Below, one piece after another: positions 51,403 to 64,000 of a DNA stretch of 64,000 bases; position 1 is the first letter of the stretch; the number at the start of each line of letters is the position of its first letter. The stretch is from NCBI GenBank assembly GCA_017626405.1, contig JAGAIS010000002.1, forward strand, positions 62,189 to 126,188. The letters are read 5' to 3'. Source of the DNA: Bacilli bacterium (GTDB lineage: Bacteria; Bacillota_I; Bacilli_A; RF39; UBA660). A model generated the notes under the pieces. That model ran no database searches. It was not told the origin of the DNA and saw only the letters and a list, made by a program, of their open reading frames with translations. The translations under genes were made by a program, and so were the position numbers.

Positions 51403-52203
51403 ATGAAGACAGTAGTTATAACTGGTTCGGCTCGAGGTTTTGGATACGCTATGATAGAGTTATTTTATAAGAATAACTTTAATGTTGTTGTAACTGATAT
51501 CAATGAAAATGAACTGGATAAAGCAGTAAATAAACTTGCTATGATTGAAAGTGGTGGTGAAATACTTTCTTTTAATGTCGATGTTACAAAATCAAGTGAC
51601 ATCGATGTTGTAATTCAAGAGACAGTTTTAGAATTTGGCGGTATCGATATTTGGATAAATAATGCGGGAGTTAACCAACCAAATAAGCCTATTTGGGAAC
51701 TTGATGAAGAGGTAATTAATAGACTTATCGACATCGATATAAAAGCTGTAGTTAATTCAACGAGACTAGTTATTAATCAAATGAATAAACAAGGATACGG
51801 AGCAATATATAATGTCGAAGGTCATGGCTCAAATGATGCAACAATTACTGGTTTATCAATTTATGGTATGTCTAAAAGAGCTGTAACATATTTTACTGAT
51901 GCTCTAATTCATGAAACAAAAGAAAAAAATATCAATATAACAATAGGAAAGATTACGCCTGGAATAATGATAACTAACTTTATAAGTACATCTCTAGGTG
52001 ATGGGAAAAAGATAATCTTAGATGATAAGACAAAGAAAATATACAATATTTTAGGCGATTATCCCGAAACAATTGCAAAATTTATGGTTAGTAAGATCAT
52101 AAAAAATAAAAAGAAATATCCAAAATTTGTATTTCTTTCAAATAGAAGAGCTGCTTGGCGATTTATGACTTCAGGATTTAATAAAAAGAACTATTTTGAA
52201 TAG
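51403..52203 (+). CDS. SDR-family oxidoreductase
   Basis: VVITGSARGFG (TGxxxGxG), NNAG, YGMSK (YxxxK). Confidence 0.85.
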   Translation: MKTVVITGSARGFGYAMIELFYKNNFNVVVTDINENELDKAVNKLAMIESGGEILSFNVDVTKSSDIDVVIQETVLEFGGIDIWINNAGVNQPNKPIWELDEEVINRLIDIDIKAVVNSTRLVINQMNKQGYGAIYNVEGHGSNDATITGLSIYGMSKRAVTYFTDALIHETKEKNINITIGKITPGIMITNFISTSLGDGKKIILDDKTKKIYNILGDYPETIAKFMVSKIIKNKKKYPKFVFLSNRRAAWRFMTSGFNKKNYFE

Positions 52204-52222
52204 TATTATACTATTCTTTTTT
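52198..52222 (+). terminator. rho-independent terminator
   Basis: GAATAGTA-TTA-TACTATTC stem followed by T-run. Confidence 0.6.
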
Positions 52223-52272
52223 CTTGTTTAAATTATTATTTAATGGTATTATTTTTATGTCGAGGTAATACT

Positions 52273-53100
52273 ATGGAAAGATATAAAGAGATTGAGAGAA
52301 GTATAATTACTAAATATCGTAAGACTATATGGGCACCATTTTGTCGTGCCGTATCCGATTATGAACTAATAAATGAGGGAGATTCTCTAATGGTTTGTAT
52401 AAGTGGAGGAAAGGACTCTTTCCTTTTAGCAAAGTGTATCGAAGAACTAAGAGTTCATGGTAAAGTTAAATTTGATGCTAAATATGTAGTTATGGATCCA
52501 GGATATTTGAAGAGTAATAGAAATATGATTATTGAAAATGCAAAGATACTTAATATCGATATCGAAATATTTGAAAGTAATATATTTGAGGTAGTTAATA
52601 ATACAGATTTTAAAAGCCCATGTTATTTATGTGCTAGAATGCGTAGGGGATACCTTTATAACCATGCTAAAGAGATTGGATGTAATAAAATTGTATTAGG
52701 ACATCATTTTGATGATGTCATTGAAACAACACTTTTATCAATGTTCTATGGAGCTGAAGTGAAGACAATGCTTCCAAAAGTAAAAAGCGATAATTATGAG
52801 GGATTAGAATTAATTAGACCAATGTATTTAGTAAAGGAAGAAGATATACTAAAGTGGGTTAAATATAATGATTTAAGATTTCTAAACTGTGCTTGTAGAT
52901 TTACTGAAATGAATGATAAACATGAAATAGAAAGTAAGAGAAAAGAAATTAAAGAGTTAATCAAAGAGTTAAGGAAAACTTATGAAGAAATTGATAATAA
53001 TATATTTAAATCGATGGGAAATATTAATCTGAACTGTGTACTTGGATATCATAAAGATTCCGAATCATATACATTCTTAGATAGTTTTAAAGAAAAATAA
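52273..53100 (+). CDS. PP-loop ATPase, tRNA 2-thiocytidine biosynthesis TtcA-like
   Basis: VCISGGKDS (SGGxDS PP-loop), CYLCARMRRG, LGHHFDD. ATG 52273 follows a GAGGT RBS. Confidence 0.8.
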   Translation: MERYKEIERSIITKYRKTIWAPFCRAVSDYELINEGDSLMVCISGGKDSFLLAKCIEELRVHGKVKFDAKYVVMDPGYLKSNRNMIIENAKILNIDIEIFESNIFEVVNNTDFKSPCYLCARMRRGYLYNHAKEIGCNKIVLGHHFDDVIETTLLSMFYGAEVKTMLPKVKSDNYEGLELIRPMYLVKEEDILKWVKYNDLRFLNCACRFTEMNDKHEIESKRKEIKELIKELRKTYEEIDNNIFKSMGNINLNCVLGYHKDSESYTFLDSFKEK

Positions 53101-53250
53101 TGTTTTTTCTTTTTTTTGAAGTAAAATAAAAAATTTTTGTTAATATATATATTGAAAAGAAAATTACTATATAAGTTTTATAAAATGCGTTATAATTAAT
53201 TTAGATAAATTAAACTTTTATAAGTTAATATGGTGTTAGTAGGTGATAGA

Positions 53251-54453
53251 ATGAAGGTTATTGTTGTTGGATCAGGTCCTAGTGGAATGATAGCAGCTAT
53301 AAGACTTGCTTTAAACAATGAAGTGGTATTAGTTGATAGTAATAACTCATTGGGCAAAAAATTGTTATTGAGTGGAAACGGAAAGTGTAATTATTGGAAT
53401 AGAAATATTGTTCCTTCTAAATATATAACTGATGATGGTTTTATTTTATCTTCTATTCTTACAAGAGATAATATAGATAATACTTTTAAGTTTTTAGATA
53501 GTTTGGGTTTATATCCAACAATCAAAGGAGATTTATATTATCCATATTCTGAAAATTCCCATAGTGTATTATCGATTTTAAAAAGGAAATTAGAGTCTAG
53601 CAATGTTGAGATAAAATATAATTTTAAAGTAATCGATATAAAAAAGGAAAATGGAGTATTTACTATCGTTAGCAGTGATAATGAGACAATTACTTCTGAT
53701 GCTGTTATTATTGCATCGGGGGGGTCTTCCATGAAAAAAACAGGAAGTGATGGAAGCATTATGAATATACTTAAAAGTATGGGGCACGAAGTTATACCCT
53801 TTATTCCTTCGCTAAATCGCATTACTTTAGGTTGTAATTTTAAAAGTATTGAGAACATTAGAAGTAGAGCTAGTATAAAAGTATTAGTAAATAATGAAGA
53901 ACTGTTTGAAGATAGTGGAGAAGTATTATTTAAAAGTGATGGCATAAGTGGAATTGTATCTTTTAATGCTAGTGCTTATGTGTCCTATTATTTGAATAAA
54001 GGGAATAATATTGATATAGCAATTAATTATTTAAATAACATTGACAATGTAGATGAATTCTTAAAAAATCGCTCAGAACAACTAAATAATCCAAGTATTG
54101 AAAGTTTATTGGAAAGTTTAATTGACTATCGTTTAATGTTTTATTTGTTGGATTATATAAGTTTAAATAAAGATAAATTGTACAATAGTTTAACTGAAGA
54201 AGAAAAAAATAATTTAATCTCAGTACTTACAAATAATAAATATAGAGCATTGGAAGTAGGTGACTTAGATTCTAGTCAGGTAAGCATTGGAGGATTAAAA
54301 CTTACAAATATTAATCCGAATAATTTTGAATCAAATATAGTATCTAACTTATATATTATTGGAGAAGCATTAGATGTTGCTGGTATATGTGGAGGTTATA
54401 ATATTGCCTTTGCATTTATTAGTGGATTTATTGTGGGGTGTCATTTATGTTGA
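53251..54453 (+). CDS. HI0933/BaiN-like FAD-dependent flavoprotein
   Basis: VIVVGSGPSGMIAA and LLSGNGKCNYWN (GxGxCNxxN) motifs; C-terminal GEALDVAGICGGYN. Confidence 0.75.
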   Translation: MKVIVVGSGPSGMIAAIRLALNNEVVLVDSNNSLGKKLLLSGNGKCNYWNRNIVPSKYITDDGFILSSILTRDNIDNTFKFLDSLGLYPTIKGDLYYPYSENSHSVLSILKRKLESSNVEIKYNFKVIDIKKENGVFTIVSSDNETITSDAVIIASGGSSMKKTGSDGSIMNILKSMGHEVIPFIPSLNRITLGCNFKSIENIRSRASIKVLVNNEELFEDSGEVLFKSDGISGIVSFNASAYVSYYLNKGNNIDIAINYLNNIDNVDEFLKNRSEQLNNPSIESLLESLIDYRLMFYLLDYISLNKDKLYNSLTEEEKNNLISVLTNNKYRALEVGDLDSSQVSIGGLKLTNINPNNFESNIVSNLYIIGEALDVAGICGGYNIAFAFISGFIVGCHLC

Positions 54454-56051
54454 GAGTAAGACAAGTTAAAGTTCCTGTAATGAATGATACAAGCGAAGCG
54501 CTAAAGAAATCTCTAGCATTAAAACTTCATATTGATGAACAAAGAATAAAAAAAATAGATGTTGTTAAACAATCAATTGATGCTAGAAAAAAAGATGAAA
54601 TTTATTATGTATATGAAGTAGATGTAAATATTGATAATGAAAAGCAAATATTAAATAGTTTTAAGAATAATAATGATATTTTGACTTCTCCTAGCAAAGA
54701 ATATACAATCGAGTGTACAGGAACAAAAGTTTTAGAGTATCCACCAATTATTGTTGGTTCAGGCCCTTCGGGGTTATTTGCAGCTTTAAACTTACTAGAG
54801 CATGGCATAAAGCCAATCATTATTGAACGCGGTAAAAAAGTAGATGAAAGAGTAAAAGATATTGAGAAATTAATTGATGAAAATAAACTTGATGAAGAAT
54901 CGAATGTTCAATTTGGTGAAGGTGGGGCAGGAACCTTCTCTGACGGCAAATTAAACACACTTATTAAAGATACGGAGAATAGATGTCGAAAGGTATTTGA
55001 AACATTCGTTGAATGCGGAGCGGATGCTGATATTTTATATAGTTATAAACCACATATTGGAACCGATGTATTGAGGGTTGTAATTAAAAACTTGAGGAAA
55101 AAAATTGAATACTTAGGTGGTAAATTCTTATTTAATACTAAAATGACTGATGTAATAATTCGCGATGGTAAAGTATTGGGAATAGAAGTCAATAATAGCG
55201 AAGTAATAAAAACCAATATTTTAATTTTAGCTATAGGTAATTCAGCGCGTGATACTTTTGAAATGCTATGTAAAAGAGAAATTCCAATGGAATCAAAAAG
55301 ATTTGCTGTGGGAGTTAGAATTATGCATCCTCAAGGATTAATAGATGTTTCTCAAAATGGAGAAAAATACTGTGATGTTCTATCACCAGCTACTTACAAA
55401 TTGACTCAACCAATTGGCAATCGCGGAGTTTATACTTTCTGCATGTGTCCGGGAGGATATATTATTAATGCATCAAGTGAAAAAGAACGCATATGTGTAA
55501 ATGGTATGAGTTATCATAAAAGAGATAGTGGATATGCTAACTCGGCAATTGTTGTTACAGTGTCGGAAAGTGATTATGGTAATGATGTCTTAAGTGGACT
55601 TAATTATCAGAGAAAACTAGAAGATAAAGCGTATAAATTAGGTAATGGTTTAATACCAGTTCAAACTTTAAAGGATTTTTTTAATAATGAATTAACTATC
55701 ACAGAAAAAGATGATTTAAAGATTCAAGGTAAGTATCAATTTGCCAATTTGAATAATTTATTTGATCCGGTCATAACCGATTCGATAAAAAAGGGAATTG
55801 AAACTTTTGATAAACGCATTAAGAATTTTAAATATGAAGATGCGATTTTAGCGGCTGTCGAAACTCGTACATCATCGCCAATTCGCATTGATAGGAATGC
55901 AAATTTAGAATCATCAATAGGTGGATTATATCCGGCTGGTGAAGGAGCGGGATATGCTGGTGGAATAACGTCGAGTGCCATTGATGGATTAAAAGTAGCT
56001 GAATCAATTTTAAAAGAATATAGAGGAGATACAAATGAGCAAAATGACTAA
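54447..56051 (+). CDS. NAD(P)/FAD-dependent oxidoreductase (COG2509-like)
   Basis: PIIVGSGPSGLFAAL dinucleotide motif, FGEGGAGTFSDGKL, C-terminal YPAGEGAGYAGGI. Confidence 0.75.
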   Translation: MLRVRQVKVPVMNDTSEALKKSLALKLHIDEQRIKKIDVVKQSIDARKKDEIYYVYEVDVNIDNEKQILNSFKNNNDILTSPSKEYTIECTGTKVLEYPPIIVGSGPSGLFAALNLLEHGIKPIIIERGKKVDERVKDIEKLIDENKLDEESNVQFGEGGAGTFSDGKLNTLIKDTENRCRKVFETFVECGADADILYSYKPHIGTDVLRVVIKNLRKKIEYLGGKFLFNTKMTDVIIRDGKVLGIEVNNSEVIKTNILILAIGNSARDTFEMLCKREIPMESKRFAVGVRIMHPQGLIDVSQNGEKYCDVLSPATYKLTQPIGNRGVYTFCMCPGGYIINASSEKERICVNGMSYHKRDSGYANSAIVVTVSESDYGNDVLSGLNYQRKLEDKAYKLGNGLIPVQTLKDFFNNELTITEKDDLKIQGKYQFANLNNLFDPVITDSIKKGIETFDKRIKNFKYEDAILAAVETRTSSPIRIDRNANLESSIGGLYPAGEGAGYAGGITSSAIDGLKVAESILKEYRGDTNEQND

Positions 56052-57531
56052 AGAAGAAAAAAAATTGAAGCGTGAACAGCAAAAAGCAGAGATGAAAAAG
56101 GTAAAAAAACTAAATAAGAGTACTAAGGTAGTTTTAATTTTTTCAATTGTCATGCTATTACTTATGTTAATAAATAATGTATTTATGTATTTTAACGAAG
56201 ATTATGCACTTTTTCATATTAATCATATAACAAATAGTGTAAATGGAATTATCTTTTATCTATCGAGTTTTGTTGATTATGGTTCCTATATATTTTTAAT
56301 TCTAATTTTACTTGTATTCTTTATCTTAGCAATTATTGAATCAGTTATCGTTAGTTTAAGATTGAGTATTGAATATAGAAATAAAATATATAATCGAATA
56401 GAAAAAATAAATATTATTTATATTTTAGTAATATTTTCCTACTTAATAATCAACTGTTATTATTTGCATTTGCCAAATATAGATAATATTCTTTTTGAAA
56501 GCACTAAAAATAAGACATATACTAAAGAAGATTTAATTGAATTAAATGAATATTTAAAAAATAAAGTGCTTGAGTATGGGAAATTACAGAAAAGAGAAAA
56601 CGGAAGTGTCAATTTCGATGGAGACATCAATAAGCAAGTAATAAAAGATTTACATAATATCGATAATGAAATCACATTACTAAAGGGATTATATCCTAAC
56701 AAAAGTGCAGATTTAAATGATACATTAAAAGGTATAGTTGGCTCATCTACTTATGGTTTGACTCATTTTTATAGTACTTATTTTGACTATAGTAAAGAAC
56801 CTGTAATAATTATGAATACAATAGCTCATGAGTATACTCATACTAAGGGTATAATAAGAGAAAATGAAACAGTATTTGTCTCGAGTTTAGCCGGAATTAA
56901 AAGTGATAATATCGTATCAAATTATGCAGGATATCTAGAGGCTTTCTCGAGAGTAAATTATGCACTCTATGAAATAGAAAAAGAAATATCTAATGATACG
57001 GAAGATGAGATAGTTTCTAAGTGTCTAACATCTAATTATAATGAATTATGCAATTTATATACGAAGAATAATGGAGAATATATAAATGGCTCAAAGAATC
57101 TATATGTATCATCATATTATTTGAAAAACTATATTGGCTATGAAAAAGAATTAGAAAGTTCTCTAAACATACTTACAAGTGATGGAGGTAAACTAACGAT
57201 AGATGATAAAGAAGTTACAGTTCAAGATATAATTAATTCTATCGATGAGAATAACGATAAGCATTTCCTTTTCCTAAAGGAAATAAATAAGAAAAGTTAT
57301 AATAAAATAAAAGAGTCATTAAAGAATGATAAATTATATAAATCTATATATCAGCAAAATGATATAACAGAAGATAGTAAATATAAGAAAGATATTGAAA
57401 AATACTATCTTGCTCCATTTGAAAATTATGATTCACTTTTCTTAAATTCTAAAGTTTCAAGTATTGATTATACATATGAAAGATCAGCAAGATTATTCTT
57501 AGAGTATTATGATATAAATGGTTATAAATAA
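56035..57531 (+). CDS. membrane protein with HExxH zinc-metalloprotease-like motif
   Basis: Basic N-terminus, three TM helices, IAHEYTHTKG (HExxH). Confidence 0.6.
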   Translation: MSKMTKEEKKLKREQQKAEMKKVKKLNKSTKVVLIFSIVMLLLMLINNVFMYFNEDYALFHINHITNSVNGIIFYLSSFVDYGSYIFLILILLVFFILAIIESVIVSLRLSIEYRNKIYNRIEKINIIYILVIFSYLIINCYYLHLPNIDNILFESTKNKTYTKEDLIELNEYLKNKVLEYGKLQKRENGSVNFDGDINKQVIKDLHNIDNEITLLKGLYPNKSADLNDTLKGIVGSSTYGLTHFYSTYFDYSKEPVIIMNTIAHEYTHTKGIIRENETVFVSSLAGIKSDNIVSNYAGYLEAFSRVNYALYEIEKEISNDTEDEIVSKCLTSNYNELCNLYTKNNGEYINGSKNLYVSSYYLKNYIGYEKELESSLNILTSDGGKLTIDDKEVTVQDIINSIDENNDKHFLFLKEINKKSYNKIKESLKNDKLYKSIYQQNDITEDSKYKKDIEKYYLAPFENYDSLFLNSKVSSIDYTYERSARLFLEYYDINGYK

Positions 57532-57565
57532 TAAATGGGAAAAAACATTTGAGAGGATTGATTAG

Positions 57566-58321
57566 ATGTATATTGATGAAAATACTATTAAAGAATTGAT
57601 TTTGGAAAGAGATAAACTTATTAATGAAATAAAGGAATATGAAAGTGCAAATCCTGATTATAATAAAGTAAATTATCGATATAAGATGATGAATGAAGAA
57701 CTTATTTCATTAACTAAAGGAATAAATTCTCTTCTCTTAAATTTGCAATTTTCGTATTCTAGATACAATATTCACACTTCGAATTATCCTAAAGATTATA
57801 TTGTTTTCGACACAGAGACAACAGGATTAGATCCTAATAGTAACGAAATAATAGAATATTCGTTTTTAAAGTATGTTGATAATAAACTAGTAGATAAATT
57901 ATCGTCATTAGTAAAACCTAGTGTACCAATTCCTGAGTTTATTACGAACATCACTCATATTAGCAATGATTCTGTCGAAGATGCTTTGCCAATCGATGAA
58001 CATTTAGCTAAAATTATTGAATTTATAAATGGACAAGTAATAATAGGCCATAATATATTATTTGATATAAAATTTCTCGAAAGTACGATAAAACGCTCTT
58101 CTTTGGAATTGAATAGAGTAAAAATAGAATATATTGATACAGTATCGTTAGCTAGGAAATATATTCCTGACGCACCAAATCACAAACTTGAAACGTTAAA
58201 GAATTATTTGAATATCGATAGTATATCACATCGTTCAGAAAGTGATTGCGAAGTTACACAAATTGTCTATATGAAATGTGTTGAAAAAGCAAATGAAGAA
58301 ATAGCAAATGCTCTTCAATAA
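57566..58321 (+). CDS. DEDDh 3'-5' exonuclease (DnaQ/epsilon-like domain)
   Basis: IVFDTETTGLD (Exo I), GHNILFDIKFL (Exo II), HRSESDC (Exo III, H-x4-D). Confidence 0.8.
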   Translation: MYIDENTIKELILERDKLINEIKEYESANPDYNKVNYRYKMMNEELISLTKGINSLLLNLQFSYSRYNIHTSNYPKDYIVFDTETTGLDPNSNEIIEYSFLKYVDNKLVDKLSSLVKPSVPIPEFITNITHISNDSVEDALPIDEHLAKIIEFINGQVIIGHNILFDIKFLESTIKRSSLELNRVKIEYIDTVSLARKYIPDAPNHKLETLKNYLNIDSISHRSESDCEVTQIVYMKCVEKANEEIANALQ

Positions 58322-58332
58322 TGGAGATTTTT

Positions 58333-59022
58333 ATGGAAAAAATTGAAAAAAAAGACATATTTGTACTTTCATTGTGTGCTTTAGTATCTATTGCATCGGG
58401 AATAATATCTAATGACATCCTAGTTGGTGGAATAATTCTATTTACAGCTTTAGCTAATTCTTATTATGGAGGTAAGGGTAATAGAATTACTTATATCTTT
58501 GGAACAGTAAATTGTTTGCTATATAGTTATGTTGGTTTTAAAAATGGTTTATTTGGAGCATTTTCATTTTATTTATTAATTTTCTTGCCTATGCAATTTA
58601 TTGGCTTTATTAATTGGGGGAAGAATAAAAACAATAATAACGATGTGATTGTTCGTGATTTTACTTTGAAAAATTCAATTATTGTTGTATCTTCATGTGT
58701 AGTTGGAAGTTTTCTACTAGCTTTTCTACTAGATTTGATTCCTAATCAACAATTGGCTATTTTAGATTCCGCATCCAATATTTTAAATATATGTGCGAAT
58801 ATCTTGATGATACTAAGATTTAAAGAATGTTGGTGGATATGGATATTTAATAATATAATAGATTTAAGTATATGGACAGTTTTATTAATTAATGGTGGAG
58901 TCAGTAGTATGATGATGTTCCTTGTATCTTTAGGATATCTTTTATTAAATATTTATGGAATCGTAAAATGGGAGATTGAAGCGAGAAAGAATAGGAAGAC
59001 TATAGAATTAAATAAAAGATGA
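58333..59022 (+). CDS. pnuC: nicotinamide riboside transporter PnuC
   Basis: About 7 TM helices; CWWIWIFNNIIDLSIW motif characteristic of PnuC. ATG 58333 has a GGAG RBS; 58321 has none. Confidence 0.8.
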   Translation: MEKIEKKDIFVLSLCALVSIASGIISNDILVGGIILFTALANSYYGGKGNRITYIFGTVNCLLYSYVGFKNGLFGAFSFYLLIFLPMQFIGFINWGKNKNNNNDVIVRDFTLKNSIIVVSSCVVGSFLLAFLLDLIPNQQLAILDSASNILNICANILMILRFKECWWIWIFNNIIDLSIWTVLLINGGVSSMMMFLVSLGYLLLNIYGIVKWEIEARKNRKTIELNKR

Positions 59023-59042
59023 CAATTATATATTTTAACAAC

Positions 59043-59076
59043 AAAAAAATAATCTATTTCTAGATTATTTTTTTTA
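59043..59076. terminator. bidirectional rho-independent terminator
   Basis: AATAATCTA-TTTC-TAGATTATT stem flanked by an A-run and T-run, between convergent pnuC and the ATPase gene. Confidence 0.7.
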
Positions 59077-59201
59077 TCAATACTCGAAAAGTTCGAGTAG
59101 ATTTCAAAATGGGGCGATAACAAAGGTTATCTGAAACCCTAAAGTAAAAGTTGATAAACAACTAATTTCTATACACATTATAGCATACTTTTTTTATTAA
59201 T

Positions 59202-61325
59202 TCACATTTTTTTAATCATTTCATATAAATTTATTAATTCGTCATCACTCATATCAATTATCGGCTCATACATAAACGCATTAACATGAATATTTTCTGA
59301 TACCATAATTCTTACTTTTTCAGATATACTTTTTTCTTCATATGTAAGTAAATTATTATTAACACAGTAATCAATTAATTCATATGTCTGATTGCTTGTG
59401 AAACCATTAACTACATTCCAATCATTAAATTTATTAAATAATTTCTTTTCAAATAACAATCTTATAGCTATCGATAGAATTAATTTATTATGTAATTCTA
59501 TTTCAGTAGTTCCTTGTCGTATATTATCTGTAACGTCAAATAGTAAATCTATAAATTTAGAGTCTTTAAGATTAGAACTTGTATTAATATGAGTTTTAAA
59601 TATATCATTTATTTGTAAAGTTGTTATTGTTTCTGTATTTTTCTTATAATGCAAACAACTTGTAAGAAGTAAATAATCATTATCCTGATTTCCATTAGTC
59701 ATTTCTATTATATTTCTCGTAAATGGAATAGATGCTATGAAGTATTTAGAATCATTAATTCTATCTTTGAATGATGTAAATACATTTCTAGTGAAATGAA
59801 AATCAATTAAATTAATTTCATTCTCTTTTATAACTGATAATTTTTTTACATGTAATCTATTAGCACATGCTCTGTAGAAGTCAAAATTATGTGTCAAAAT
59901 TACTAAATGGAATGTACTATTATTATTCAACTCCTTCAATAATTCTATTATTGCATATTTGTTTTTATAATCAAACGAATCTGCTATATCATCTAAAACA
60001 AATATTGTTTCTATGTTATTTTCTTTTCTATATTGTATTTCAAATATAAGATTAAGTATATTAAATGCTTTTCTTTCACCTTTACTTAAATTATCTTTTA
60101 ATAAATTTTTATCTACATTTTCATTAACATCATATTTGTCTTTAAACTTATAGTTCAAGGAGCATGCACTATTTTTTAATATAATATCACTTATATTATT
60201 AACTTCTAATTCAAATGGCATATTTATAAATTTGTCGTTAAATTCAGTTATGGCATTATTCCATTTTTTGTAATTGTCTAAATCAGTAGTTTTATCAATA
60301 ATTTCTTTTAATACTTTACTATTTAAATTATAGTTATTTATGTAGTTTTCAATTGCATTTTTAATATCACTTGTACTTAATACATAATGCCAGTATTCTT
60401 TTTTTAATGTATTTAAGTCTTTAATCATAGGAATAATCCATTGATTTTTTGATAAAAAAGTATTTAACTCTTGAGATTTAATTTTTCCAGTCAAAACTTC
60501 ATTTGCCTTTTTAACATTTTTATCTATACTTAATTGATTATCTAAATCTTCAATTAAATCCGTGATTGTTTTTTCATTATAATCATAGAATTTTTCTTTT
60601 TGTTTAATACTCTTAAACTTTAATAAATGTCCTGGTTCAAAATAATTATTTGAAGATAAACTTTTTATGATAGTCTTTAAATTATATAATTCGAAAACAT
60701 CTTTTATAAAAATATCATTGTTTTCAATTATTTCATTACATATTTTAATATAATTATCAACAGTCTCAATAATATCTTTTTGCCCAAATATTTTTAAATT
60801 ATCATCAGTAAATAATTTATTATATTTAATATCTTTAAAACTTTCATTGGCGTCATCTGAATTTAATAAATCAGTTTGTATGTCATTTAAATTAGAAATT
60901 TTTAAATCAAATAAGACAGTTTGTAGTTCAACACCTGAAAGTGATTTTATTTTTTTATTTATATCCTTATAATTTTTTTCCAATGAAGAATATACTTGAT
61001 CATATTCTTTTTTTAAAGATGGATTGACTAACAATGACGTCATTTCTTCATTAGCTATTTCATAGTCATCACTATCGATCACAACCAAACCATTAGTATC
61101 TAATGGGCTATCATCTTCAATAATAATATTTCTAATCGTTGTTCTTTTAGGAAAATATACATCAGAACTATCAATTCCTTCTTTATACTCTTTCATAGTT
61201 TTTGAAAAACTTGTCTTCATTGAACCATTTGGTGCATAAATTAAATAATCATTATTTAAATCAAAATTATATTTTAATTTATTTATACCATGACAATATT
61301 CTAAATCTAGTTTTAGTTCTTTCAT
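59202..61325 (-). CDS. AAA_13-type (PrrC/RloC-like) ABC ATPase with long helical insertion and uncharacterised C-terminal domain
   Basis: LIYAPNGSMKTSFSK (Walker A-like), LSKGERKAFNILNLIF (ABC signature-like LSxGE), IFVLDDIADSFD (Walker B/D-loop), VILTHNFDFY (H-loop). About 300 aa lie between Walker A and the signature. Strong GGGAGGAG RBS. Confidence 0.75.
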   Translation of the reverse strand: MKELKLDLEYCHGINKLKYNFDLNNDYLIYAPNGSMKTSFSKTMKEYKEGIDSSDVYFPKRTTIRNIIIEDDSPLDTNGLVVIDSDDYEIANEEMTSLLVNPSLKKEYDQVYSSLEKNYKDINKKIKSLSGVELQTVLFDLKISNLNDIQTDLLNSDDANESFKDIKYNKLFTDDNLKIFGQKDIIETVDNYIKICNEIIENNDIFIKDVFELYNLKTIIKSLSSNNYFEPGHLLKFKSIKQKEKFYDYNEKTITDLIEDLDNQLSIDKNVKKANEVLTGKIKSQELNTFLSKNQWIIPMIKDLNTLKKEYWHYVLSTSDIKNAIENYINNYNLNSKVLKEIIDKTTDLDNYKKWNNAITEFNDKFINMPFELEVNNISDIILKNSACSLNYKFKDKYDVNENVDKNLLKDNLSKGERKAFNILNLIFEIQYRKENNIETIFVLDDIADSFDYKNKYAIIELLKELNNNSTFHLVILTHNFDFYRACANRLHVKKLSVIKENEINLIDFHFTRNVFTSFKDRINDSKYFIASIPFTRNIIEMTNGNQDNDYLLLTSCLHYKKNTETITTLQINDIFKTHINTSSNLKDSKFIDLLFDVTDNIRQGTTEIELHNKLILSIAIRLLFEKKLFNKFNDWNVVNGFTSNQTYELIDYCVNNNLLTYEEKSISEKVRIMVSENIHVNAFMYEPIIDMSDDELINLYEMIKKM

Positions 61326-61367
61326 TTTATCACTCCTCCCACATCTAGAAAGTTCCTAACTACTGCC

Positions 61368-61396
61368 ATTTTATAAGTTTAAAACTATAAAGTCAA
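61368..61396 (-). promoter_or_regulatory. candidate sigmaA promoter of the ATPase gene (TTGACT-17-TAAAAT on minus strand)
   Basis: Reverse complement of 61391-61396 is TTGACT and of 61368-61373 is TAAAAT, with a 17-nt spacer. Confidence 0.45.
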
Positions 61397-61402
61397 TAGT
61401 TT

Positions 61403-61429
61403 TTAGCACTTATTTTTTAAGAGTGCTAA
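61403..61429. promoter_or_regulatory. CIRCE (HrcA operator) in the leader/promoter region of the PrrC/RloC-like ATPase gene
   Basis: The minus strand reads TTAGCACTC-N9-AAGTGCTAA (17/18 to consensus TTAGCACTC-N9-GAGTGCTAA). Lies 78-104 nt upstream of the ATG at 61325. Confidence 0.7.
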
Positions 61430-61488
61430 ATTATATTTATATATATTATGTATAATATATATAATTATAAAATTTTTAAATTTTTTTC

Positions 61489-61524
61489 AAAAAAAAAATA
61501 TGCTATTAAAAATAATTAGCATAT
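61489..61524 (-). terminator. rho-independent terminator after the XRE gene (minus strand)
   Basis: ATATGCTA...TAGCATAT 8-bp stem, followed on the minus strand by a T-run (A-run 61491-61498 on plus). Confidence 0.6.
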
Positions 61525-61527
61525 TTT

Positions 61528-61767
61528 TTAGTTAGAATCATCAAATAATTGTCTTATGTCTATTTCTAAAGCATCAGCAAATTTTCCTATTGTTTCTAAT
61601 AATGGTGTTTTATCTATTGATAAGCATTCTAAATCTCTAACATAACCATGAGTAAGTCCAGTTAAATCTGCAAGTTCTTGAAGTGTGTACTTTCTCATTA
61701 AGCGATATTTCTTTATATTTTTTCTAACAATTAATGATAATTGTTCTTTAGAATATCTACTAGTCAA
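61528..61767 (-). CDS. XRE-family helix-turn-helix transcriptional regulator
   Basis: IKKYRLMRKYTLQELADLTGLTHGYVRDLE HTH_3-type motif, 79 aa, TTG start after GAGGAAGTGAGG. Confidence 0.85.
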   Translation of the reverse strand: MTSRYSKEQLSLIVRKNIKKYRLMRKYTLQELADLTGLTHGYVRDLECLSIDKTPLLETIGKFADALEIDIRQLFDDSN

Positions 61768-61876
61768 AGTACCTCACTTCCTCTCTTGTAAAATTATTTC
61801 ATAAAGATTTTGAAAAATATGTCGTCTGTGTGAAGTTTTTATGATATAATTAAAATTGAAAGGAGATAAGGTTTAT

Positions 61877-62494
61877 ATGAAGACTAAAAAATGTAAACAT
61901 TGCCAAGAAGAAATTGCAAAAAGTGCAAAGAGATGTCCTAAATGTGGTGGAAAATTAGGAATGCCAGGTTGGGCTAAAGCTTTAATTATAGTTGTAATTA
62001 TATTTGGTTGTATCGTTGGATGTGTTAATGGTTGTTCAAATGCAGTAAATGATGCTGTTGAAGATACTAAAAATTCTTATAAAGATATAAATGGAAAAAC
62101 TTCATTTAAAGTAAATGAAACTTTCCAAAACAAATATGAAAAAATAACTATGACTGAAGTAAATACTAATGTCACTGATTATAGCGAATATCTAGGACCA
62201 AAAGATGGCAATAAAATCATTGCATTAAAATTTGAAGTTGAAAATATTAATGAAGAGAATGATGAATTATATGTTAGTAGTATGAGTTTTAATGCCTATG
62301 CTGATGGTGAAGCTGTTGATTCATATATGTATGGAAGTGATAAATATAAAGACTTATCAGCAACACTTGGAAAAGGAAAGAAAGCTGTAGGTTATGTATT
62401 ATATGAAGTTCCTAAAAATGCTCAAAAGATAACTGTTGAGTATAATGCAGATTTCTGGACTGATGGTAATGCTATCGAATTTGTAGTTCAATAG
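61877..62494 (+). CDS. zinc-ribbon / single-TM / DUF4352-like extracellular domain protein
   Basis: CKHCQEEI...CPKCGG zinc ribbon, TM helix ALIIVVIIFGCIVGCV. The C-terminal beta-rich domain (KFEVENINEEN...GYVLYEVPKNAQKITVEY) resembles DUF4352. AAGGAG RBS before ATG 61877. Confidence 0.7.
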   Translation: MKTKKCKHCQEEIAKSAKRCPKCGGKLGMPGWAKALIIVVIIFGCIVGCVNGCSNAVNDAVEDTKNSYKDINGKTSFKVNETFQNKYEKITMTEVNTNVTDYSEYLGPKDGNKIIALKFEVENINEENDELYVSSMSFNAYADGEAVDSYMYGSDKYKDLSATLGKGKKAVGYVLYEVPKNAQKITVEYNADFWTDGNAIEFVVQ

Positions 62495-62551
62495 AAGTAA
62501 AAAACTGGCTAATTTATAGTCAGTTTTATATTGAATAAATATATATAAAGC

Positions 62552-62578
62552 AAAAGGAAGAGATAAACTCTTCCTTTT
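62552..62578. terminator. bidirectional rho-independent terminator
   Basis: AAAAGGAAGAG-ATAAA-CTCTTCCTTTT perfect 11-bp stem, between convergent genes. Confidence 0.7.
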
Positions 62579-62650
62579 GAAAAACTTCTACCAAGTGTAT
62601 AAATACACCTGCAACAATCTAAAGTACCTTAATTATACCATTTTAAATGG

Positions 62651-63466
62651 TTAAGTCAACACTTTTTCACGATTTTCTTTAGATTTATTATAAATAGTAT
62701 TTTGCTTTCTGATAGTTCTATTTGTTTCTTTTATTTCTTCAAAAGCATAATACTTCTTTATTATTTTTAATATAGCATCATTATCTTTTTTAGTAATAGT
62801 TGCTATTTTATTATTTATATAATATGGTTCTCTAATTCTATTAGAACTTATGTTAATTAAGTTTTCTAATCTCGCAGTTCCTAGTTTTTCATCTAATAAA
62901 TCATAATGAAAATAATAATTATCATCTTTATGTTTTGAAGTAAGTGGTATAGCAGTCCACATTTTTTTATTTGATGCACTTCTCCATAATATTGCTGGTC
63001 TTAACTTTCTTAATTCACTACCAATATTATAACCTAAATCTACCCAATATATTGCTCCAACTTTTAAATTAGTAGTATCATCAGTATTTTTATTTATTAA
63101 TTCTAATTTATCTTTACACCATTTATTATATGATATGCCATCCGGATCATTATTTGTATTATCTTTGACATAGTTTAAAAAACTAATTTTAGATTTTAAT
63201 AAAATATCATCAAATTCTTTATTAGTTATTTTAATAGGTTTACCTTTAATATAAACACATCTTTTAATATTGGAACGATTATAATCAGTTATTTCATCAA
63301 ATACCACATATTTATTAATAGATTTTAAATGAATACTATTTTCTTTTTCTTCATTATAAACAGGTACTCCAACATAATGATTTTGTGATATATCATAAAG
63401 AATCAAAATCCATTGTTTATTATCATTTAAATTAAATTCATATATTTGTTTCCAATTTATAGTAAG
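62651..63466 (-). CDS. oversized PemK/MazF-like protein (intact C-terminal toxin-like domain, degenerate N-terminal copy)
   Basis: VGAIYWVDLGYNIGSELRKLRPAILWRS...WTAIPLTSK matches the PemK/MazF core pattern (GdIywvdf...GsE..k.RPaliv...v.piTs). ATG 63466 follows a GGTGA RBS. Confidence 0.65.
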   Translation of the reverse strand, partial: LTINWKQIYEFNLNDNKQWILILYDISQNHYVGVPVYNEEKENSIHLKSINKYVVFDEITDYNRSNIKRCVYIKGKPIKITNKEFDDILLKSKISFLNYVKDNTNNDPDGISYNKWCKDKLELINKNTDDTTNLKVGAIYWVDLGYNIGSELRKLRPAILWRSASNKKMWTAIPLTSKHKDDNYYFHYDLLDEKLGTARLENLINISSNRIREPYYINNKIATITKKDNDAILKIIKKYYAFEEIKETNRTIRKQNTIYNKSKENREKVLT

Positions 63467-63496
63467 CATATTTATCACCAACTTTCTTTATTTTAA

Positions 63497-64000
63497 TTAT
63501 CTTTCTAGTTCATCATCTTTTGATTTTTTGGTTTCATAAAATTCTTCAGCATACTCATTCATTTCATCATTAATGTGCTTTGTTGCTTTATCAATTTCCT
63601 TTTTATTAAATAAATTAAAACCTTTAAATGATTTTTCTCTCTTTCTTATAACTTCAGGATCATATTGTTGTTTAAAAAAATTAAGATTAATATTATTGTA
63701 ATTAAATAATCTATCAATTAATTCTTGGATAAATTCAGGTAATTTTTTGATTATTTTATTTAAGTGATAAATAAGATAATCAGTTTTTTCTTTTAAATCG
63801 TTGTATCTAGTTTCAGTTTGATAGTTAATATTCTTTAAATATTCATTTTCTTCTTTTAACTTTTTATTTTCGTCTAATAACTGATTTTTAGATTTAATAA
63901 CAATTTTATTATTAAGTTTTTTCTTTTTATCAATTTCATCTTTGATATCATCTTTATCTTTATTAAGTTTTGTTATTTGCTTATTAATAGATTCTTTATT
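63497..64000 (-). CDS. 3' part of a coiled-coil protein (start beyond the right edge)
   Basis: Minus-strand frame open from 64000 to the stop at 63497-63499. Translates ...NKESINKQITKLNKDKDDIKDEIDKKKKLNNKIVIKSKNQLLDENKKLKEENEYLKN...EEFYETKKSKDDELER. Not in the ORF track because it has no start in the window. Confidence 0.55.
   Translation of the reverse strand, partial: NKESINKQITKLNKDKDDIKDEIDKKKKLNNKIVIKSKNQLLDENKKLKEENEYLKNINYQTETRYNDLKEKTDYLIYHLNKIIKKLPEFIQELIDRLFNYNNINLNFFKQQYDPEVIRKREKSFKGFNLFNKKEIDKATKHINDEMNEYAEEFYETKKSKDDELER

Follow-up and report, generated by a model that had tools for sequence, protein, structure and literature searches.

The 64,000-nucleotide stretch of a Bacilli bacterium genome analysed here (GTDB lineage Bacteria; Bacillota_I; Bacilli_A; RF39; UBA660; assembly GCA_017626405.1, contig JAGAIS010000002.1, positions 62,189 to 126,188 of the forward strand; hereafter the window) contains a minus-strand open reading frame (ORF) at 59202..61325, which starts with ATG and encodes a protein of 707 residues plus a stop codon. 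A preliminary description, made from the sequence alone, had read this protein as a PrrC/RloC-like ATP-binding cassette (ABC) ATPase and as a candidate single-gene abortive-infection or nuclease effector. Which family does the ATPase belong to, and what might it do? We find that it belongs to PDC-S46, a family already catalogued as a defence candidate, which shares the general layout of PrrC and RloC but lies outside their Pfam family AAA_13, and which combines a P-loop lacking the canonical glycine with a strongly conserved, all-helical C-terminal domain.

The protein matches the PADLOC hidden Markov model (HMM) PDC-S46 over its whole length, with residues 1-706 aligned to model positions 1-717 of 719 (E 1.8e-182, 606.7 bits). 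Judged by this match, the window gene is a member of PDC-S46 and differs in nothing from the catalogued family, and the single-gene defence candidacy proposed earlier finds its counterpart in a listed candidate family. The PDC sets consist of candidates picked out by their embedding in defence systems already known ('guilt-by-embedding'), and PDC-S46 is one of 145 such phage-defence candidates and a single-gene one (Payne et al., bioRxiv 10.1101/2024.01.29.577857). PDC-S46 is thus a catalogued candidate family whose label carries no information on mechanism. A chance ORF is ruled out by the end-to-end match to a 719-position model and by more than 6000 full-length relatives. All motifs quoted in the preliminary description are indeed present in the ORF: YAPNGSMKTSFSK at residue 30, LSKGERKAF at 413, IFVLDDIADSFD at 441 and VILTHNFDFY at 475, followed in the C-terminal part by IRLLFEKK at 621 and SENIHVN at 676, with a distance of 54 from E626 to H680. 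The only cysteines are at positions 11, 196, 388, 487, 557 and 654, and no CxxC occurs anywhere in the protein, in agreement with the earlier remark that a zinc hook is missing. The gene was also correctly described as AT-rich; its GC content is 21.4%, lower than in the eight housekeeping genes on its left side (51403-59022, 27.6%) and in the window as a whole (26.7%).

The family is large and uniform. A word-indexed search returned more than 6383 clusters at 90% identity, all of about 700-730 residues and nearly all unnamed. Using phmmer on 1.84 billion representatives at 50% identity, we saw the number of matches rise from 601 at E ≤ 1e-30 to 1033 at E ≤ 1e-10 and no further than 1510 at E ≤ 1e-3; the best 150 representatives were nearly all full-length matches of about 690-760 residues, a few evident fragments excepted. 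A genome scan found relatives in at least 452 of 600 candidate stretches. The bacterial hosts among the matches listed include Bacilli, Saccharibacteria, Alpha-, Beta- and Gammaproteobacteria, Actinobacteria, Bacteroidota, Cyanobacteria, Planctomycetes and Chloroflexi, and the archaeal hosts include Micrarchaeota (genome scan) and Methanoperedenaceae (word-indexed search). Relatives also occur on 27 plasmids and in one phage-like record. Three Rhizobium plasmid records call them 'phage infection protein'; the other annotations are 'hypothetical protein' and 'AAA family ATPase'. Of the three records, two are from R. beringeri, among them plasmid pRlX4 (L215:6001-8163), and one is from R. anhuiense, and no experimental basis for the name was found. 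A tight family of one fixed architecture with such a wide taxonomic scatter displays the pattern of horizontally moving accessory genes. General domain databases have little to say about it: the sole Pfam match of the window protein is a sub-threshold one to SMC_N (16.6 bits against a cut-off of 40), seen likewise in 32 of 36 family members, in NCBIfam, transporter ATPases match weakly over the Walker B/H-loop region, with scores well short of the cut-offs, and searches of PDB sequences with the single sequence and with whole-protein and C-domain profiles gave nothing beyond marginal SMC4 and transporter matches.

In the AlphaFold2 (AF2) model of the full-length protein (mean pLDDT 84.4, pTM 0.62), the ABC head is split by a large helical insert and followed by an additional C-terminal domain, as had been proposed from the motifs. 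Foldseek supports the assignment of the head, with SMC, cohesin, Smc5/6 and Rad50 heads as the best matches of the full model (E 2.8e-6 and weaker) and the retron Ec83 ATPase, JetC and MukB among the weaker ones. The C-terminal lobe of the head carries the C-loop L413-S-K-G-E417, the Walker B residues D445-D446, the D-loop S450-F-D452 and the H-loop T478-H479-N480. In an alignment of 167 family sequences, L413, S414, G416, E417, D445-D446, S450-F-D452 and H479-N480 are invariant save for one gapped row at some columns, and K37 and S39 of the P-loop are present in 166 sequences, the remaining one being gapped.

The canonical Walker A motif of P-loop NTPases reads [AG]xxxxGK[ST]. This pattern is not matched in the family, whose consensus is A-P-N-G-x-M-K-[TS]-S: position 36, directly before the lysine, is Met in 162 sequences, Leu in 2, Ile in 1 and Ala in 1, with one gap, so that Gly is found in none of the 166 residues. 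The unusual Met noted in the preliminary description is therefore real but not an oddity of this locus; it represents a family-defining trait, in a nucleotide site whose other residues are under strong selection, and not a lesion of this copy. A second deviation concerns Walker B. Most ABC ATPases have a catalytic Glu at the second Walker B position, which in PDC-S46 is Asp (D446). The Walker B motif of PrrC, YVFIDD216, also ends in Asp-Asp, and both residues are essential (PMC3025547). Taken together, the invariant residues lead us to infer that the head is a nucleotide-binding, dimerising switch with unusual kinetics, and the Met fixed in the P-loop, together with the Asp-Asp of Walker B, would fit a switch that hydrolyses nucleotide slowly better than a motor.

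The insert between the two lobes had been described as mostly helical, and the model confirms this, with about 275 residues (92-365) folded into a dozen short helices and one beta hairpin. Its composition is rich in Lys, Asn, Leu, Ile and Asp, no Pfam family was found for it, and the helix lengths in the model rule out a long coiled coil. Y192, F211, F229, H233, W355 and F362 are invariant. Of these, H233 lies in the motif NNFFxAGH, beside the only beta hairpin of the insert. The insert is more than a spacer: its conserved residues, including H233, may form a ligand- or partner-binding site, and we infer a sensor or regulatory module.

The C-terminal domain could not be assigned from sequence in the preliminary description, and this remains so: it has no Pfam match (the window protein yields none at E ≤ 10, and 39 members show no consistent family at E ≤ 5), no match to PDB sequences and no significant fold match. 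Modelled alone, the domain is predicted with good confidence as 12 helices (pLDDT 87.2, pTM 0.86), and its sole low-confidence stretch is the invariant ENIHxN loop. About 16 polar residues are invariant or near-invariant in the 167 sequences, namely R537, N538, E541, T555, H559, K561, K614 and R622 in the first half of the set and E626, Q646, E677, N678, H680, N682, E687 and D691 in the second. Such conservation, read from the alignment columns, points to an active site or a site for a ligand, rather than to a bundle that serves dimerisation only. The preliminary description had named a simple helical bundle without conserved polar residues as a check on its effector proposal, which thus survives. 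Two candidate catalytic sets can be formed from these residues. In set A, R537-N538-x-x-E541-x-T is followed by H559-x-K561, with the His 17 residues on being the next invariant one; in set B, R622-x3-E626 on a long helix is followed, after x53, by H680 in a flexible loop behind a helix, where it is preceded by E677-N678-I679.

How does this protein relate to PrrC and RloC? As a PrrC reference set, the D-loop peptide DDPVSSLDDNH of EcoPrrC (PMC3025547) was back-translated and scanned in metagenome contigs, which gave 75 distinct ORFs of 350-430 residues; five ORFs served as controls, four of them PrrC-like and one, L135 (791 residues), obtained in the same scan and taken as RloC-type. The four PrrC-like controls match the PADLOC PrrC model at about 1e-140 and Pfam AAA_13 with 47-66 bits, whereas L135 matches AAA_13 with 425 bits, and a search seeded with L135 returned 120 proteins, several of which are named 'wobble nucleotide-excising tRNase'. 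The controls cross-match the RloC-like PDC-S06 models, whereas PDC-S46 matches none of them. For the window protein, in contrast, no match to AAA_13 (PF13166), to PADLOC PrrC or to the PDC-S06 models was obtained at E ≤ 0.1, and none of 36 family members matches AAA_13 at E ≤ 0.01. With the HMM scans negative while genuine controls match strongly, membership in AAA_13, PrrC or RloC has to be rejected.

Profile comparison using hhalign shows what the proteins do share. The family profile aligns collinearly with PrrC (Prob 90, E 1.5e-6), with one block over the P-loop (IYAPNGxMKTSFAKTF versus IYAFNGTGKTRLSREF, P 4.5e-7) and another from the C-loop to the H-loop (P 0.0023). In this comparison, which covered PrrC alone among the ABC clades, the ATPase is PrrC-like in style, without PrrC being claimed as its nearest relative. 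In both proteins, one polypeptide comprises an ABC head and then a C-terminal helical domain, and the shared motifs are IYAxNGxxKT, LSKGE, hhhhDD, SxD and THNxxF, together with an Ala at the first Walker A position; EcoPrrC itself has LSKGE, YVFIDD and SSLD (PMC3025547). Both are also linked to defence islands or restriction-modification (RM) genes in many genomes. The differences are nevertheless considerable. PrrC has only about 390 residues, the 707 residues here being due to the 275-residue insert, and its C-terminal domain measures about 130 residues as opposed to about 195 in PDC-S46; it has Gly at the P-loop site where PDC-S46 has Met; and it is embedded in a type I RM locus, to which the copy in the window is not linked.

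The residues of the C-terminal domain can be compared in the same way. PrrC and RloC share the signature R-x3-E-x31..52-H, for example R320/E324/H356 (PMC2610378), PrrC also requires H295, H315 and R349 (PMC3025547), and R349-x6-H356 of PrrC corresponds to the Rx4-6H motif of HEPN domains (PMC3710099). H295, H315 and R349-x6-H356 have no counterparts in PDC-S46. However, both hhalign runs align L-R320-N-x-x-E324-K-T of PrrC to R537-N-x-x-E541-x-T of PDC-S46, that is, to set A, and by eye the R622-x3-E626-x53-H680 of set B nearly fits the spacing. The preliminary description had stated that PrrC uses an Arg/Glu/His set but with different spacing; the use of the three residues stands, whereas the statement on spacing was imprecise, as x53 nearly fits x31..52 (PMC2610378). 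Homology between the C-terminal domain and the nuclease domain of PrrC/RloC is, from these alignments, possible.

RloC resembles PDC-S46 in size and layout. Like PDC-S46, it falls in the class of 700-800 residues, its ABC head is broken by a helical insert of considerable size and its effector domain lies at the C-terminus, and while RloC is usually stand-alone and sometimes RM-linked (PMC2610378), the same is true of PDC-S46. PDC-S46, however, has neither the CxxC zinc hook nor the long coiled coil of RloC, no match to AAA_13 or PDC-S06, and no detectable profile similarity in the C-terminal domain.

Although not significant, the top and recurrent Foldseek matches of the C-terminal domain in the PDB are HepT toxins of the HEPN group (6m6u_H, 6m6w_H/G/B, 5yep_C, 7bxo_G and 8xdj_C; best E 0.62, prob 0.63 and 0.51, target-normalised TM 0.42-0.49), a modelled resemblance that we regard as a hint, not evidence. 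In common with HepT of HepT/MntA, the domain is all-helical and carries, in a flexible loop directly behind a helix, an invariant His, as well as a conserved acidic residue on the long helix preceding this His; the catalytic His of HEPN domains sits in a loop after a helix (PMC3710099). On the other hand, the defining Rx4-6H is not present in PDC-S46, and the 12-helix domain is larger than the four-helix HEPN core.

Relatives of the gene are found in surroundings that are defensive in character but variable. In 80 loci from genomes of many phyla, no gene family was common to more than 6, and no conserved small ORF lies beside the family gene; the PDC-S46 gene stands alone, without an obligatory partner. 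Within two genes of it, methyltransferases (N6_Mtase, DNA_methylase, N6_N4_Mtase, MethyltransfD12, Eco57I), restriction-type proteins (ResIII, RE_endonuc, Mrr_cat, HpaII) and other defence genes (BrxC, AIPR, nSTAND3, AAA_15/21/23/27 ATPases, DUF2130 and RhuM) are abundant. A relative with 84% identity (P0007, L085) is preceded by a divergent pair encoding an 837-residue DNA_methylase/Eco57I protein and a 411-residue protein, one with 81% identity follows genes for an NgoFVII-type restriction endonuclease and a C5-methyltransferase, and one with 67% identity has no RM neighbour. At 52% identity (P0041, L214:3279-11469), the gene stands in a same-strand row of a helix-turn-helix (HTH) gene, an AlwI-type restriction endonuclease, a double D12 methyltransferase, the ATPase and a RhuM-Fic fusion. 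The earlier remark that the gene lacks an RM partner is thus correct for this copy but not for the family, as both close and distant relatives often adjoin RM genes, in some cases of a type II-like kind. A neighbourhood of RM and RhuM or Fic/Doc genes has been described by Anantharaman et al. for PrrC/RloC-like ABC-HEPN proteins (PMC3710099), and this shared context supports, by association only, a PrrC/RloC-like role. On the Providencia plasmid pPROV188-1 (L216:3812-9621), a member lies in the apparent leading region of an F-like plasmid, between a truncated gene for a type I RM M-subunit and an antirestriction gene, upstream of traM/traY/traA.

The explanation that we favour, and to which we give about an even chance, is that PDC-S46 proteins are nucleotide-gated abortive-infection effectors built on the PrrC/RloC plan, with the C-terminal domain most likely a nuclease. 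Their logic would be that of PrrC and RloC, directed against phages or mobile elements. Nucleotide would be held between two heads, by the deviant P-loop (A-x-N-G-x-M-K-T-S) of one subunit and the LSKGE loop of its partner, and the insert would respond to a sign of infection or to the condition of a restriction system in the same cell. A nucleotide-dependent change would then free the C-terminal domain to act; this domain would be a nuclease, likeliest a metal-independent RNase using the conserved His, Arg and Glu, and its action would halt the growth of the infected cell.

Several observations weigh against this explanation. The fold search with the C-terminal domain found nothing significant either in the PDB, where the best E was 0.62, or among the BFVD viral models, and the positions 4-6 residues ahead of H680 are hydrophobic or Thr/Pro, without a conserved Arg. 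When the C-terminal domains alone were compared using hhalign, the match to PrrC reached P 0.021 over 24 columns only and that to RloC P 0.42, although the comparison has low power, since even the positive control of PrrC versus RloC gets no further than P 8.5e-4. Nucleotide binding could be atypical, given the bulky Met in place of the P-loop glycine. The neighbourhood evidence is guilt by association, and no RM genes adjoin the ATPase gene in the window. Finally, PDC-S46 is unmentioned in the literature searched, both in the texts of the papers and in their supplements.

The absence of a nuclease fold or motif, including Rx4-6H, from the C-domain searches is what one would expect if the protein were a defence sensor with a non-enzymatic C-terminal domain, serving as a recognition or adaptor module for a phage protein, a nucleic acid or a co-resident RM enzyme, with an output such as sequestration, the switching on of another factor in trans or the using up of nucleotide. 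Some HEPN-like domains are indeed non-catalytic binders (PMC3710099), and RM genes are frequent yet variable neighbours of the family. However, pairs of His, Arg and Lys residues and several acidic, Asn and Gln ones are invariant across phyla and archaea, which looks more like an active site than a surface for contact with fast-evolving phage proteins, and with no conserved partner gene an effector in trans would have to be universal. Of the alternatives this one survives best, but we consider it unlikely. Rather unlikely, too, is the bolder proposition that PDC-S46 is not a diverged PrrC/RloC at all but a distinct class of single-protein immune ATPase, in which the Gly-to-Met change of the P-loop and the Asp-Asp Walker B would have turned the ABC head into a non- or very slow-hydrolysing switch, combined with a new, non-HEPN effector fold that has its own His/Arg/Glu site.

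The window copy itself belongs to a mobile element. An identical protein is encoded on 17 contigs, and the longest of these (L081) shows, in the order leading to the gene, a serine recombinase (617 residues), a Mob_Pre relaxase (439 residues), a PemK/MazF-domain protein (272 residues there), a zinc-ribbon/DUF4352 protein on the opposite strand, an HTH_3 protein (79 residues) and the ATPase, while the shorter contigs show the parts they reach; in the window, the neighbours are likewise HTH, DUF4352, PemK-domain and relaxase genes. Identity between contigs ends at ...GTTATCGCCCCAT, 93 nucleotides past the stop codon (~59109), and the DNA beyond is unrelated, with a PnuC gene (as in the window), a sulfatase gene or a YjbR gene in the three downstream flanks. 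Identical DNA with at least three different chromosomal flanks identifies the ATPase gene as cargo at the end of an integrative mobilizable element inserted at several sites, and this origin explains the low GC content of the gene. The element measures about 8 kb (~3900-12216 on L081); the window holds it from ~59109 to the right edge at 64000, and it continues beyond. No tRNA gene that could have served as an integration site was found within 56000-64000. In a variant element (L085:2664-10124), the PemK, DUF4352 and HTH genes are swapped for the methyltransferase and 411-residue-protein genes, so that the slot before the ATPase is an exchangeable cargo position, while the recombinase, the relaxase and the terminal ATPase are kept. 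The PemK-domain protein has an N-terminal extension of about 135 residues, no obvious adjoining antitoxin gene and no PADLOC match.

The retention of the gene at the end of two element variants with differing middle cargo could also mean that it serves the element, as a DNA-transaction ATPase of the SMC/Rad50/RecN type in maintenance, establishment, repair or anti-restriction, rather than immunity. The sole Pfam match is to SMC_N, the best folds are SMC, cohesin and Rad50 heads, and the Providencia plasmid copy lies in a leading region near an antirestriction gene. Defence ATPases built on such heads include JetC, LmuB and PtuA of Septu and retrons. Yet the likeness of head folds, down to E 2.8e-6 for the SMC/Rad50 type in Foldseek, is common to all ABC ATPases. 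Unlike SMC and Rad50, PDC-S46 lacks a hinge, a zinc hook and a long antiparallel coiled coil, and has no Mre11/SbcD-like nuclease or kleisin gene as a partner among conserved neighbours, and it has a conserved C-terminal domain of its own. Moreover, most of the 80 genomic copies lie in chromosomal, defence-type surroundings without element genes. A role in serving the element is therefore improbable.

Upstream of the gene, a promoter-like TTGACT-17-TAAAAT is present at 61396..61368, although in this AT-rich region the number of such sites is not above that in shuffled sequences, and the strong ribosome-binding site GGGAGGAG lies at 61340..61333, 7 nucleotides before the ATG. An AT-rich hairpin and T-run follow the HTH gene (~61485-61527); they were missed by the terminator scan for lack of G-C pairs. 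With this hairpin and T-run and a promoter-like site and ribosome-binding site of its own, the ATPase is probably transcribed alone. The HTH gene was rejected as a cognate partner, being absent in relatives and separately terminated. That the ATPase is the toxin of an addiction pair stabilising the element, with the 79-residue HTH protein as its antitoxin or repressor, is accordingly the least probable of all readings: the HTH_3 gene does lie 202 nucleotides upstream on the same strand, and its product weakly resembles CapH, RM control-protein and HTH antitoxin models, but it is replaced by an RM-like pair in the 84%-identical copy, no neighbour is conserved in the 80 loci, the two genes are separated by the signals just described, and the HTH gene is divergent to the zinc-ribbon/DUF4352 gene and may regulate that instead. 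The features of the locus are collected in the table.

Table. Coordinates, in window positions, of the PDC-S46 gene, its parts and signals, and the accompanying element genes.
Feature	Position	Strand	Basis and remarks
Whole gene, PADLOC PDC-S46 member	59202..61325	-	ORF call, HMM, AF2 model (mean pLDDT 84.4)
N-terminal ABC lobe, residues 1-91 (beta strands and P-loop helix)	61053..61325	-	Model secondary structure, Foldseek, hhalign
Deviant Walker A, A31-P-N-G-S-M36-K37-T-S39	61209..61235	-	167-sequence alignment
Helical insert, residues 92-365	60231..61052	-	Model secondary structure, conservation
F-x-x-x-H of insert, residues 229-233	60627-60641	-	Conservation; next to the beta hairpin in the model
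C-terminal ABC lobe, residues 366-510	59796..60230	-	Alignment invariance, sub-threshold SMC_N, hhalign
C-terminal all-helical domain, residues 511-707 (~195 residues)	59205..59795	-	Domain model, conservation
Likely expression signals	61333..61396	-	Consensus scan and direct reading
3' flank to element end	59109..59201	-	Three-contig alignment; hairpin AGTTG-TTTAT-CAACT, inverted repeat GATAAC-CTTT-GTTATC, then GCCCCAT
79-residue HTH_3 (Xre-type) protein	61528-61767	-	Weak likeness to CapH, RM control-protein and HTH antitoxin models
212-residue zinc-ribbon and DUF4352/DUF5067 protein	61856-62494	+	Divergent from HTH gene
276-residue PemK/MazF-domain protein	62651-63481	-	C-terminal 105 residues match, E 7e-11
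Mob_Pre relaxase, last 167 codons	63497-64000	-	Gene call; serine recombinase outside window

PDC-S46 is a large family, numbering about 600 clusters when grouped at 50% identity and over 6000 when grouped at 90%, spread across phyla, archaea, plasmids and mobile elements. For annotation, this protein, of the kind entered as 'hypothetical protein' or 'AAA family ATPase', can be given the label of a PDC-S46-family protein with a PrrC/RloC-like layout, outside AAA_13. The gene in the window is easy to test, since it is small, stands by itself and brings a promoter-like site and a ribosome-binding site of its own, and the two competing catalytic sets offer a mutational design. If PDC-S46 is a true defence protein, a widespread single-gene system would be added to those known. 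Its mechanistic interest would then lie in a P-loop that never has the canonical Gly while the other residues of the nucleotide site are invariant and, second, in a strongly conserved effector domain without a recognisable fold.

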